In this document: positions 47,100-52,975 of the stretch, piece by piece
Layout of the letters: every line of letters starts with the position of its first letter
Numbering within the stretch: position 1 is the stretch's first letter
Source of the DNA: Eledone cirrhosa
Taxonomy: Eukaryota
Direction: 5' to 3'
Assembly (NCBI GenBank): GCA_964016885.1
Contig: OZ024755.1
Span: forward strand, 24,056,001-24,120,000
DNA length: 64,000 nucleotides
Position numbers and translations under genes: made by a program
Notes under the pieces: model-generated
Seen by the model: the letters and a program-made list of their open reading frames with translations, nothing else
What the model was told of the DNA's origin: nothing
Databases searched by the model: none

Positions 47100-47138
<39 letters not shown>

Positions 47139-47141
47139 GAA

Positions 47142-47216
47142 GCTGTCTGATGAGATCACGACACTGGTTGTATGAAATCACGTGGCCACTGTCGTCATTG
47201 AAATATGTATCACAGC
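47142..47216 (+). ncRNA. Type I hammerhead ribozyme motif (Penelope-like, minimal stem III)
   Basis: Stem I GCUGU/ACAGC; CUGAUGA at 47147; 16-bp imperfect stem II closed by G.U; GAAA at 47200; near-palindromic UAUGUA in stem III; AUC triplet ending at 47211; AATAAA at 47223. Confidence 0.7.
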
Positions 47217-47270
47217 CTTATCAATAAAGGACTACAACATCTATAACTACTTCACATTTTCTTATTTTAA

Positions 47271-47311
<41 letters not shown>

Positions 47312-47499
47312 TAAATCCACCAAATCAATGGTAGGGTCTAAGCCGTATGAAGAACTCAATGTAATCCGTATGTAGATGTCGTGAAGCAAAGTTAAAAATA
47401 CAAAATTTCAACGATATAATTCATTGGATACAGAGTCAAAAATACAAATAGTGAAAACAATGAAATTAAACAAAAAACGGTTAATTCATAGTAAAACTC

Positions 47500-47623
47500 A
47501 TTATTTTACGATCATTTCTGGGGGGTAGTTCCCCGTATGTCCATTCTATGTAAAATATATTACAAATTATCATAGTAAGAAAATATACATACGTCTTCCC
47601 TACACGCCGTCTTCAGAAATAAT
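47500..47623 (-). ncRNA. Hammerhead-like motif in the left arm of the palindrome
   Basis: Stem I AUUAUUU/AAAUAAU; CUGAAGA; long stem II (GUAG/CUAC, CGUAUGU/ACAUACG); GAAA-UGAUCG-UA. The stem II closing pair is a non-canonical C.A. Confidence 0.55.
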
Positions 47624-47624
47624 G

Positions 47625-47748
47625 ATTATTTCTGAAAACGGCGCGTAGGGAAGACGTATGTATATTTTCTTACTATGATAATTTGTAATATATTTTACAT
47701 AGAATGGACATACGGGGAACTACCCCCCAGAAATGATCGTAAAATAAT
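47625..47748 (+). ncRNA. Mirror hammerhead-like motif in the right arm of the palindrome, core mutated (CUGAAAA)
   Basis: Inverted copy of 47500-47623 with a G-to-A change in the core. Confidence 0.45.
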
Positions 47749-47997
47749 GAGTTTTACTATGAATTAACCGTTTTTTGTTTAATTTCATTGTTTTCACTAT
47801 TTGTATATATATATATATATATAAACCCATGCTAGCGTGGAAGATAGACGTTAAACGATGATGATGATGATGATGATATATATGCACACAATCCTGACAT
47901 ACCCACAATGTGGATAGCCATTGATACTCAAGATTTCTCCTGTCCTTTGTCAGGTTTTGCTTATCTCACCTTCCTCATCAAGATATATATATATATA

Positions 47998-48030
<33 letters not shown>

Positions 48031-48231
48031 TATATATGATAATATATCTGTTAAATATATAAAACTATTGTTAGTAATGAGCACTATTAATATCATACAA
48101 AACAAAACAAATTCAAACCAAAGAATTCAAACCAAAGAATCACTGATTCACTATTTACTTGCATTAAGTCAATATCAGAATGACGACTACTTCTAAAATT
48201 AGGATAAACTAATTGAGAATCTTTTACAAAC

Positions 48232-48276
48232 CTTGATCCCATCACTATTGGAGGGGACTCTTCATCTTGTGAGGAA
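48232..48276 (-). CDS. Probable micro-exon (SSQDEESPPIVMGS). An alternative upstream acceptor at 48326 would add LCYDNNYPAYNVLYDF in phase 0.
   Basis: Acceptor gatttcag, 45 nt, donor AG|gtttgt, phase 2-2. Ser/acidic peptide. Confidence 0.55.
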
Positions 48277-48373
48277 CTGAAATCATATAGCACATTATAT
48301 GCTGGATAATTGTTGTCGTAACAGAGCTGAAGTGATTGAATAGCATGCTTGCATGTACATATCTACACTCTGA

Positions 48374-48421
<48 letters not shown>

Positions 48422-48534
48422 TTTATTTATGTTCATACACGGAACAGAGGTGCTCCCCAAGGCCCAAATATGACCATATCTCCATAAAACAAGAGACATC
48501 AAAATAGACATTCCTTCAGGCGTTAATACAAATT

Positions 48535-48535
<1 letters not shown>

Positions 48536-48612
<77 letters not shown>
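48536..48612. repeat. (GA)n microsatellite
   Basis: Seen directly. Confidence 0.95.
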
Positions 48613-48615
48613 GAT

Positions 48616-49225: not shown

Positions 49226-49315
49226 ACAACCCAACCAGGAGCTGGACACATCGGAGTATTGACGGAGTAAAACACTTCAACAACATCTGTACCTGTCTCT
49301 ACCACACCAATTCGG

Positions 49316-49372
49316 ACTGCCTGAAGAGGTCACAGTCAATGATGGCTGTCACCAAAATATATATATAGCAGT
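49316..49372 (+). ncRNA. Degenerate hammerhead motif (Penelope-like)
   Basis: Stem I ACUGC/GCAGU; CUGAAGA; stem II GGUCACAGUCA/UGGCUGUCACC; GAAA decayed to AAAA; (UA)n palindromic stem III. Confidence 0.6.
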
Positions 49373-49517
49373 ACATCTTTAATAAACAAAGCCAAATTTT
49401 AAATATTTTACTTAATTATTTTACATTACTCCGGAGTAACCAAACAAACCTGCGTACTTCGTCGAGTGCTCCAATCTGCATACTGAGGTGTCGGTAAACA
49501 ACCAACATATACTCAAA

Positions 49518-49565
<48 letters not shown>

Positions 49566-49896
49566 AATATTTATTGTGTAGTTATGCACCCTAAGGGATA
49601 CTTTTACTCAATATTTCTGATGAGTTTGGAGAAAACTGTTTGATTAATGAATCAAAATTATCAATTACATTCATTTTGTTAATGGAATGTTTATAGACCG
49701 AAAATATTTTGAACCCTGCAAACTCTTTGGTTTTCCTTTCAATACATATTAATTCACTGTGATGCTGGTTTCGATCTTACTTCCTGGACTTTACCCTTGA
49801 TTTGTTTGATCTGTATGAATCATAATTGTAACAACGTATTGCACTTCCTATCATCTTGTTCAGTCAAAACTAAGTGGATATCTCCATTTATAAATC

Positions 49897-49938
49897 TGTG
49901 TATGTGTGTGTATGTATGTGTATATATATGTGTGTGTG

Positions 49939-49969
<31 letters not shown>

Positions 49970-50027
49970 CTATGTGTGTGTGCATATATACTATATATAT
50001 GTGTGTGTGTGTGTATGTGTGTGTGTC

Positions 50028-50092
<65 letters not shown>

Positions 50093-50238
50093 CTATGTGT
50101 GCATATATACTATATATATATGTGTGTGTGTGTATGTGTGTCTGTGTCTATATATATATATATATATCTGTGTGTGTCTATGTGTGTGTGCATATATACT
50201 ATATATATATATGTGTGTGTGTGTATGTGTGTCTGTGT
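49897..50238. repeat. Compound TA/TG microsatellite with higher-order repetition
   Basis: The landmark gcatatatactatatata recurs three times. Confidence 0.9.
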
Positions 50239-50328
50239 CTATATATATATATATATATAATTAGTTACAACTCGTCCTATGGACTGAGTGTTCTTACTCT
50301 TGGCTATTTCTACCAAATTTTTACAACA

Positions 50329-50372
<44 letters not shown>

Positions 50373-50549
50373 AAAAAAGGTTTCTCCAAGTGACTGTCCA
50401 TCACACATATGTATATATATAATACATATAGTTTCTTTTGACTGTGTGTGTATGTGCGCATCTTTCTGTATGTCCTTCATTATGTAAACAAATGCAACGC
50501 AGACTTAAACAAAAGACTTTCACTATAATGACAGGTTGTTGTCGTTGTT

Positions 50550-50815
50550 GAGAGAGGGAGAGAGAGATACAGTGAGAGAGGGAGAGAGAGATACAGTGAG
50601 AGAGTGAGAGAGAGATACAGTGAGAGAGTGAGAGAGAGATACAGTGAGAGAGGGAGATAGTGAGAGAGGGAGAGAGGGGGAGAGAGAGAGATACAGTGAG
50701 AGAGGGAGAGAGTGAGAGAGGGAGGGAGAGAGTGAGAGAGGGAGAGAGAGATACAGTGATAGAGGGAGAGAGTGAGAGAGGGAGAGAGAGATACAGTGAG
50801 AGAGTGAGATAGATA
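50550..50815. repeat. GA-rich minisatellite (unit gagagatacagtgagagagg)
   Basis: Seen directly. Confidence 0.9.
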
Positions 50816-51712
50816 GAATAACAATTTGTTTTAAAAAAAACAACAGTGAGAGAGAGAATGTGTGTGAAAGATCGATAGATAGGTAGAGAATGTGGTCACC
50901 ATAGTAACTAATGAGTTTTGATTGTATTTGCAAGAATTTTAAGTGCAAGTCTGTCAATACATGTGGATAAAACACATGTTTGTGTGTGTGTATTTTACTG
51001 GCAGCATAGTGATGGGTAGCAACCTAGTATGTAATAAAACATAAACAATTAGTCTTATTAGTTTCATGCTTTGATTAAAAGAGAGAAAAAAGTTCAACGT
51101 ATTGGACATTAATCCTTCATCAGGTGTAGTTCTTACTCTCACTCATCAAATCGTCCATAAAGAGCAAATGGTTCACCCTTTTCTCCCATAATATTTGTAT
51201 AAGAGGGATCAAGCAAAAAACAAACAAAAGTGATAGACTATCACCCTGAAATATACCTCTCCTGATACGTGGATACACACAGGGAGCTGTGTTGTGTGAT
51301 TAAATAGTAATATTTTGATCACACATAATAAATATGGTTTTTCAAAATGGTAGTGAGGGCAGAAAATATTTCTTACAATGTAAAAATGCAATCATTTTAT
51401 GTCATTATCTTCATATCACGATTTGAATGAGTGTGTCATTTTGAAATGTATAATTTCTAAAATTAATTAACCTGGAGGCCCTTTATATAATAACATATTG
51501 GATATAGTGTAATAGCAACAGAAGACATTTTCCTATATGTCCTTTATAAAACATTTAATTTCCATAGATATTGATATGATAAATTTGGCAATTGTTAAAC
51601 TAACTTTTCAGTAAACAAATATATTTGACATGATTATGTTATGTCTTTGAAAAAGAAAAATGAAAAGAAAATGTAAAAAGAGATTTCTCTGAAAAATAAA
51701 TGCATTATTCAA

Positions 51713-51758
<46 letters not shown>

Positions 51759-51883
51759 TTTCAAGTGAGTATATTAGATATATTGCTTTTTGTTTCGGTT
51801 TTTAACCGTGTCTATATGAAGTTTGTATCTTTAAAGTTTCTGTAAATTTGATGCAGAAAATAAAACTTATTAATCGACATATA

Positions 51884-52199
51884 CAGTGTACCCCCTGGCA
51901 TTTGTGGTCCTGGTTATTGACGAATTTTCCTTGGAACCTAACTAATAATTACTTGTGGAAACCACCACATATTCACGGAATCATAAATATATTCCATGAT
52001 TTTTAATGCTTTTTTCGCAGCAATATATAATTTTTCACGCTTTTTAATGCTAAATCATTAATAACAATATATCGTATTTGCTGGCCTATGTTTACATTAA
52101 GTTTTGACAATTATAGGCATTTTTATGGAGCACGTCTAATATTTGCAGTTTTTCATTCTTTGCAGGTGCTCAAGGAACTGTAAATACTGGGGATAACTG
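51884..52199. mobile_element. Tigger/pogo-like MITE
   Basis: TA-CAGTGTACCCCCTGGCATTT ... AAATACTGGGGATAACTG-TA. Confidence 0.6.
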
Positions 52200-52975
52200 T
52201 ATATAAGCACATATACACTCTCACACATAGACACCACATGCACGCACGCACTTACAAACACCACATATACACACACACTCAAAAACACAACATGCACACA
52301 CACATATACCCTCACAGACACTACATGCATTCACACACATAAACACCACTTGCATTCACACACACAGAGACACCATATGCATTCACACACACACACACAG
52401 ACAGACACCTGATGCATTCACCAATATTACTGCAGGTATGACTGTGCAGTTGAGAAGTTTAGTTTGCAATCATGTAGTTCCACTTTTGATCCCACTGCAT
52501 AAGTGTCTTCTAAAATAGATTTGAACCCGTGTGTGTGTGTGTACAGAGAGCAGCAAAAATACCTCCCATATTTTAATGGTTGAATGTGTAAAATATGGGA
52601 GATTTTTCTGTTGCACCCTCTATGTATATATATATATATACAAACACACACTAATATTATATATATATATTCATGTGTGGTGTGTATGCAAAAAGTAAGA
52701 GAAATAACAAAGCAAATGATGCAGCACAATGAAGAAATATATTAGTTTAATACTTTATATAGTTGGAAAAGAGTCTTAAAGTTTCGGACATTAGTGTTTC
52801 ATCAGAGGATATAATGAAAAAAAAGATGAAATAGAAAGATAAAGAGTTAGAAGAAGGAACAGAAAAAAGACGTGTGTATTTAGTCAGCCATTTTGGAGTA
52901 AAATAAAGTTATATATATATATAGTAGGAAATGAAGGGAAATCATTGCGACTGCAAGATAAATTTGAAAAAAGAG

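Follow-up and report, generated by a model that had tools for sequence, protein, structure and literature searches.

Hammerhead-bearing ends of Penelope-like elements in a (TA)n-rich patch of the Eledone cirrhosa genome

A 64-kb window of Eledone cirrhosa DNA (64,000 nucleotides; GenBank assembly GCA_964016885.1, contig OZ024755.1, positions 24,056,001 to 24,120,000 of the forward strand, numbered here from 1) harbors a 5.7-kb cluster of hammerhead ribozyme motifs at positions 47100-52810. We consider it highly probable that this cluster represents seven independent 5'-truncated insertions of six hammerhead-bearing repeat families (A to F) in a (TA)n-rich patch, with a likely origin by target-primed reverse transcription of the Penelope type, that three of these families continue into Penelope-like enzyme open reading frames (ORFs) elsewhere in the genome, and that the copies are by now mostly dead by prediction. 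The motifs are real, and the cluster is ordinary debris of Penelope-like elements (PLEs), the mechanism of which is already known.

Hammerhead-derived pieces and their families

A sequence-only reading of the window had listed eight hammerhead sites, all of which are hammerhead-derived after three corrections. The pieces that could be delimited, and the patch that holds them, are as follows.

47137-47270, plus strand: family A, 3' stub of an approximately 1.3-kb PLE-type element without an ORF; hammerhead at 47142-47216, core intact
47306-47623, minus strand: family B (putative Hydra-type PLE), 3' end and tail, left arm of an inverted pair; hammerhead at 47623-47500, core intact, CUGAAGA
47625-47806, plus strand: inverted partner of the family B copy; hammerhead at 47625-47748, core change G8>A
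48612-48695, minus strand: family D, inverted stub with the 3' half of the hammerhead only
48691-48905, plus strand: family D (putative Neptune/Nematis-type PLE), 3' end; U3-A8 minimal hammerhead at 48731-48766
49221-49515, plus strand: family C (putative Hydra-type PLE), 3' end; hammerhead at 49316-49372, G12>A at 49354
49590-49917, plus strand: family F, old; CUGAUGA at 49617, 3' core GGAA at 49684
51056-51124, minus strand: divergent family E-like remnant matching the E profile; GAAA reads AAUA
52659-52923, minus strand: family E, 3' end; hammerhead at about 52809-52773, core letters present, helices II and III broken
46900-52900, no strand: (TA)n-rich patch; its 6 kb hold 18 merged tracts of (TA)n, n at least 6 (60 random stretches average 7.1 per 10 kb)

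Run over the 64 kb, a strict descriptor of type I hammerheads (core, 5/5 helix I, helix II and palindromic helix III, with at most one core mismatch) matched only the motifs of A (47142-47216) and C (49316-49372), and these two matches within 47100-52810 compare with a mean of 0.02 in 200 block shuffles, none of which reached two. The A motif, on the plus strand, consists of helix I GCUGU/ACAGC, CUGAUGA, GAAA, helix III AUAUGUAU and UC, with a predicted cut after C47211 that is followed by AATAAA; the copy is a solo stub with (TA)n on both sides and no partner copy nearby. Cores are intact in A, B (minus strand), D (plus strand) and E, and altered in B (plus strand; G8>A), C (G12>A) and, within the 3' core, in F and the E-like remnant. 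Changed cores or broken helices are seen in seven of the nine pieces. The D copy at 48730-48768, earlier described as eroded, is so only in part: it has one mismatch each in helices II and III, but its UUGAAAA core is the family majority, a compensatory U3-A8 variant, and the core is complete (11 of 11 positions) in 22 of 24 copies. For F, profile alignment places the 3' core at 49684-49687, reading GGAA, and not at the GAAA at 49700 proposed before. The sites at 51095-51125 and 52780-52806 share one profile (E), and the count of families is six, where at least three had been given.

Searches of the 3.0-Gb assembly gave first-look candidates, of which 40 were scored per search, so that the totals (A 2424, B 1311, C 2698, D 1608, E 1948 and F 43) are rough lower bounds and not copy numbers; the units are thus multi-copy, as had been expected, with more than 1,300 candidate loci for each of A to E. 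Among top BLAST matches, a biased sample, the core is intact in 28 of 29 copies of A, 24 of 28 of B, 26 of 29 of C, 22 of 24 of D, 14 of 19 of E and 3 of 16 of F. The family majorities of A to F carry the type I core (C3UGAN-G8A9 or its U3/A8 form, G12AAA and U16.1-H17) and form complete folds with differing palindromic helix III sequences (ATATGTAT, ACGATCGT, ATATATAT, ACCGGT and ACGTACGT), which agrees with the earlier description of minimal Penelope-type type I hammerheads; the majority is palindromic in five of the six families, that of E being ACAT, with ACGT in several copies. Helix III duplex energies are -2.2, -6.4, -5.6 and +1.4 kcal/mol for A, B, C and D, respectively. The predicted covariation of helix pairs between families was also observed: in A, C and the family of a motif at 26677, both partners differ in 6 of 14 pairs (0-1 in slid controls) and 96% of cells are paired, although with six sequences and the structure taken from A this is supportive only. 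The 26677 motif (26677-26778, plus strand) is itself a further hammerhead remnant outside the cluster, its family being a relative of A and C.

A chance origin of such motifs in AT-rich DNA hardly deserves credence in the light of these data. It could appeal to the weak z-scores of single-strand minimum-free-energy folding (-1.7 to +1.2), which do not discriminate, and to the Infernal/Rfam scan that had been proposed as a check, in which cmscan returned no hammerhead at gathering score in the window and none among 149 matches at E<=10 in the 44-56 kb interval. However, Rfam likewise misses intact hammerhead copies in loci L302, L262 and L305, and the blank for the window is therefore uninformative; the shuffle control, the complete family-majority folds with different palindromic helices III and the covariation together refute a chance origin.

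Helix II of the long-helix families shows a recurrent irregularity. Of 19 family rows with a long helix, 12 lack pairing at pair 4 (8 of them C.C), against 0-1 rows at pairs 2, 3, 5, 6 and 7, the rows coming from related families with some overlap. Among 11 distinct motifs behind Hydra-type endonucleases (ENs), 6 have this pair-4-mismatch form, compared with none of 10 behind CCHH-type ENs. Locus flanks (L002-L306) yielded some 20 further hammerhead families with differing palindromic helices III, many with C.C or another pyrimidine mismatch at pair 4, and some with C.A, G.A or U.U at 10.1-11.1 or with C4 for U4.

Penelope-like parents and insertion into (TA)n

In line with the earlier remark that no Penelope ORF lies nearby, tblastn with nine PLE peptides of the same genome gave no match at E<0.01 in the 64-kb window. 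Elsewhere, links to Penelope reverse transcriptase (RT) and GIY-YIG ORFs could be established, B and C continuing into RT and GIY-YIG and D into GIY-YIG. For B, approximately 2 kb of collinear upstream sequence (83-88%) in L091, L092 and L094 holds RT pieces, a CxCx5C linker and a GIY-YIG domain (Pfam E 0.002-0.01, below the curated cut-off), with the CxxC and CxH motifs lying beyond a frameshift; a same-strand upstream GIY-YIG is seen in 3 of 30 loci. For C, the hammerhead is reached in 8 of 12 loci chosen by their GIY-YIG stretch (seed included), RT lies upstream in L299, and the DKT motif is degraded. Neither RWK nor DKT could be confirmed in B or C, DKT being seen only in an unlinked relative, L093. 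That locus (4480-6327, minus strand) carries a 616-aa stop-free Hydra-type RT and GIY-YIG frame with DKT, CxCx5C, CxxC and CxH, unlinked to the window families. For D, GIY-YIG lies upstream in L147, L151 and L370 (Pfam 24.1 bits, above the cut-off), and the linker and EN were recovered, with no RT. The B and C parents have a CxCx5C linker, no CCHH, and CxxC and CxH flanking the conserved E and N residues, as in the Hydra clade, while translations from L147 and L297 give the D parent the C-x4-C-x2-C linker and CCHH-type GIY-YIG of Neptune/Nematis.

Since B, C and D run into PLE enzyme ORFs, they are not non-coding retrozymes, and they show neither the lack of an ORF nor the tandem organization of such elements. 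The sequence-only reading, which took the units in general as short non-coding retroelements, therefore fails for these families, which are 3' stubs of ORF-bearing PLEs. That all units might be short retrozyme-type elements spreading via ribozyme-cut circular RNAs is, overall, improbable: the lack of an ORF and the partial tandems of A, the absence of ORF links in E and F and the presence of a young 465-bp tandem hammerhead family in the genome would fit such elements, but B, C and D refute this, another copy in direct orientation lies within 1.5 kb in 0 of 30 loci of B, 0 of 30 of C, 1 of 25 of D and 0 of 20 of E, the 5' ends are ragged, and the A unit exceeds the 51-972 bp range given for retrozymes (Li et al. 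2026, bioRxiv 10.64898/2026.07.22.740005; here and below, comparisons cover parts of the cited texts).

The ends of the copies point instead to PLE insertion, with 5' truncation, partial tandems, inverted 5' copies, an optional tail and a (TA)n target, features that PMC8557442 gives for these elements. Copies have one or two fixed 3' ends and ragged 5' ends, and (TA)n lies within 25 nt of the 3' end in 21 of 30 copies of A, 29 of 29 of B, 28 of 30 of C, 24 of 25 of D and 14 of 20 of E, so that the suspected (TA)n flank enrichment holds (70–100% of copies against 8.1% at random positions). Tails measure approximately 80 nt in A and 140 nt in B. An inverted upstream partner is found in 13 of 30 loci of B (a set that includes both window arms and one other locus twice), 11 of 30 of C, 12 of 25 of D, 3 of 30 of A and 1 of 20 of E. 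In the window, the two B motifs, 47500-47623 (minus strand) and 47625-47748 (plus strand), are arms of one 182-bp, 99% inverted repeat, which on either strand could form a hairpin of approximately 180 bp (179-181 pairs, -291/-298 kcal/mol); the helix II region in this family is 102 nt. The reality of this palindrome rests on two inter-arm differences and on inverted partners at other loci, its center being unbridged by the contigs of four runs, which are too fragmented. For E and F, the shared upstream sequence ends in a microsatellite. An ORF near E in L370 was rejected as a link, as it belongs to a neighboring D copy.

The sequence-only reading had also called the locus an insertion hotspot, for which the support is weak. 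For density, the comparison set was 60 random stretches of 10 kb each, sampled by length across 26 large contigs. A family-blind relaxed descriptor matched 44 times in these 600 kb, 3 times in 200 kb of shuffled sequence and 3 times in the window, and 11 of the 60 stretches have at least two matches, as the cluster does. A library independent of the window was built from locus flanks; 94 of its 104 entries were retained (10 dropped by eye), after which 4 TA-rich alignments were also removed and tandem and inverted copies merged. With it we count 52 events in the 600 kb and 4 in the window, 3 of these in the cluster, and three events within 5.7 kb are attained by 7 of 60 stretches. One false entry, lying in a common repeat, had dominated a first density test, and a hit at 43956 was rejected as a (TA)n artefact. 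Upon adding profiles trained on A–F, a comparison that favors the cluster, there are 61 events per 600 kb and 7 in the cluster, the highest random count being 5; a degree of additional local accumulation is thus real, which tells against a wholly ordinary density. Before the last merging and removal this union had stood at 72, with 8 attained by 2 of 60 stretches. The number of events rises with that of (TA)n tracts (Spearman 0.65). For all its density, the patch falls inside a clumped genome-wide background or slightly beyond it. Hammerhead-bearing ends occur at about 1 per 10 kb (61 events per 600 kb), which extrapolates to approximately 300,000 in the genome.

The same figures bear on the notion of a host-used ribozyme cluster, serving intron processing or the control of double-stranded RNA or editing, or of a unique targeting hotspot. 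This is very unlikely: seven insertions in 5.7 kb against one in the other 58 kb, the 180-bp hairpin and a possible exon at 53231-53382 (minus strand) would suit it, but most cores or helices are broken, the density by the family-blind relaxed descriptor is unremarkable (3 matches in the 64 kb, 44 in the 600 kb), events track (TA)n tracts, and the inverted pair is a common by-product in B, C and D.

Other features of the window are recorded here. The possible coding exon has AG/GT boundaries, no Pfam match, no atlas match and a weak similarity to BCL10 (E 0.36). A 1.5-kb (TA)n-rich tract (43373-44889) lies approximately 2 kb before the cluster. Weak tRNA matches at 677-740 (plus strand) and 38060-38113 (minus strand) are probably heads of tRNA-derived SINEs, and degraded frames at 41542-41847, 46383-46532 and 51123-51299 (all minus strand; the first without a Pfam match) resemble mariner transposase and LINE RT fragments.

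Family A and a 465-bp tandem family

Family A differs from B, C and D in its body. Candidates decrease 5'-ward (2424 at the hammerhead, then 785, 369 and 277, with queries differing in length), and a walk upstream meets no ORF and returns to the hammerhead. The full unit comprises a hammerhead repeat, approximately 1.2 kb without an ORF, and a second hammerhead repeat, 1.25–1.4 kb overall, with direct-repeat periods of 1253-1512 bp. Among 30 loci selected by the 5' body, the hammerhead repeat lies upstream in 17, downstream in 19 and on both sides in 11, both being full-length in 6. In the majority row of 16 copies the longest stop-free frame of the body is 91 codons, with no codon periodicity. 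There are two subfamilies, differing at the helix II base, and copies are approximately 7% diverged. In 84 distinct body-selected copies, of which 51 have an intact core, core mismatch is 3.9% against 7.4% in the 3' flank over non-CpG columns (Fisher p of ~9e-5). Thus the ORF-less part of the sequence-only reading stands for A, though not the short length. GIY-YIG ORFs near A in L122, L226 and L320 were rejected as neighboring or nested elements, and a 3.5-kb gap in L344 was rejected as part of A, being an insert that we take to be Gypsy-type from its motifs. Copies of A that end in ...TTATT or ...TTTTCT (L002-L004, L017, L021, L023, L025 and L026) have (CT)n next to them and mostly then (TA)n; the (CT)n may reflect slippage on the last bases of the element during priming.

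The A body joins hammerhead to hammerhead, in place of the upstream RT/GIY-YIG ORF of an EN+ PLE; an ORF-less body with flanking hammerheads is as in retrozymes, and their small tandem monomer is not seen. We regard A as likely to be a non-autonomous PLE in whose source copies the ribozyme was maintained. It would have moved in trans, probably by a Hydra-type protein, because its ribozyme has the long helix II with the C.C mismatch found behind Hydra-type ORFs; that this form lies behind none of the 10 CCHH-type EN motifs likewise points to a Hydra-type driver.

A few observations weigh against this account and that of the parents. No autonomous partner sharing the A repeat was found in 85 body-selected loci, so that the driver is only inferred. 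The comparison of core with flank in A takes no account of relatedness between copies or of base composition. Every parent ORF examined is disrupted by stops or frameshifts, and the putative placing of B and C as Hydra-type and D as Neptune/Nematis-type goes by motifs and not by a tree. No linked ORF was seen in 50 loci of E or in 20 loci of F.

A putative tandem retrozyme family, of the kind that had been suspected, is present in the genome, though absent from the window. Its 465-bp non-coding unit, with an intact minimal hammerhead, helix III ACUAGU and a GUC site, was met in a random stretch (L262, ~5170-7560) and in loci L378-L397. There are 802 candidates, with top matches 97-98% identical, in multi-copy arrays with inversions; in 20 loci that overlap in part, 77 of 79 motif matches are identical, the arrays mostly end in (TA)n, and frames are of 68 codons at most. 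We propose it as a candidate young non-LTR retrozyme. Other repeated-hammerhead clusters, in L083 and L286 (8315-9337), are possibly further tandem retrozyme-type arrays.

A bolder proposal, which we put forward tentatively and hold to be more doubtful than probable, is that A is a long retrozyme, viz., a 1.25-kb non-coding Hydra-derived parasite whose hammerhead is held by selection because its spread requires dimer cleavage and perhaps circularization, and that the genome holds a series from autonomous PLEs (B, C and D) through an ORF-less PLE (A) to the 465-bp tandem retrozyme, besides the approximately 300,000 ribozyme-bearing ends, many with the Hydra-linked helix II fold (C.C at pair 4).

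Relation to known systems and the role of the ribozyme

Minimal hammerheads of the pseudo-long terminal repeats of metazoan PLEs have been reported as solo copies, as opposite-strand pairs 100-700 bp apart and with a U3-A8 variant (PMC4209133). The present families resemble them in being type I with a short helix I and a palindromic helix III, in the many families per genome, in mostly solo copies from truncated PLEs, in opposite-strand pairs and in the U3-A8 core. They differ in the helix II regions of A, B, C and F, which are long (26-102 nt) and in which A9 is followed by no additional base, in C.C at pair 4 in A, B and C, and in C.A at 10.1-11.1 in B. These helix II differences may already have been described, since the comparison was with the main text of PMC4209133.

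Hydra-clade PLEs have canonical hammerheads and (TA)n insertion, and PLE tails are of 30-40 bp (Craig et al. 2021, PMC8557442). The B and C parents share with them the C-terminal GIY-YIG, CxCx5C and lack of CCHH, and C also CxxC and CxH, whereas the thousands of candidate loci and the longer tails of A and B are unlike them. Mollusca are among the Hydra hosts in the part of that paper covered here, which mentions cephalopods for Naiad remnants only. D is like Neptune/Nematis EN+ PLEs (PMC8557442) in its C-x4-C-x2-C linker, CCHH-type GIY-YIG and (TA)n insertion, and could be either by these shared motifs.

Non-LTR retrozymes have a small monomer of ~170-400 nt (PMC7229834) or 51-972 bp (bioRxiv 10.64898/2026.07.22.740005) and form tandem arrays. 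With these animal elements and with non-autonomous Chlamys PLEs such as MRC1 (PMC7229834, bioRxiv 10.64898/2026.07.22.740005, PMC8557442), A shares the lack of an ORF, head-to-tail type I hammerheads, dispersal and PLE-like ends; it is unlike them in its length of 1.25-1.4 kb, in partial tandems of at most about two units with inversions and no long arrays, and in its ~7% divergence. The definition of a non-LTR retrozyme fits the 465-bp family much better than A. A literature search for hammerhead ribozymes or retrozymes in octopus or cephalopods found nothing beyond Craig et al. 2021, and the word 'ribozyme' is absent from the main text of the O. vulgaris repeat paper. Families A–F are probably undescribed, judging from the main texts of papers.

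We suggest, following the PLE literature (PMC4209133, PMC6765202, PMC8557442), that the endonuclease would nick (TA)n and that RT would start just 3' of the hammerhead and usually stop early, so that the ribozyme end would be the part that survives, the inverted stub being made during integration. In the parent RNA, hammerheads would pair via the palindromic helix III and cut unit-length RNA as dimers; PLE hammerheads have low activity in vitro (PMC4209133). Within the window, little or no cleavage is predicted, given the altered cores and helices, the B minus-strand motif that has an intact core but would be trapped in the 180-bp hairpin with its partner, and the solitary A; most window copies are thus predicted to be dead.

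Whether PLE hammerheads help transposition or ride along is posed as an open question in PMC8557442. Family A, with a core more conserved than its flank, and the young tandem family are good substrates for this question of the role of the ribozyme, and these two matter more than the cluster.

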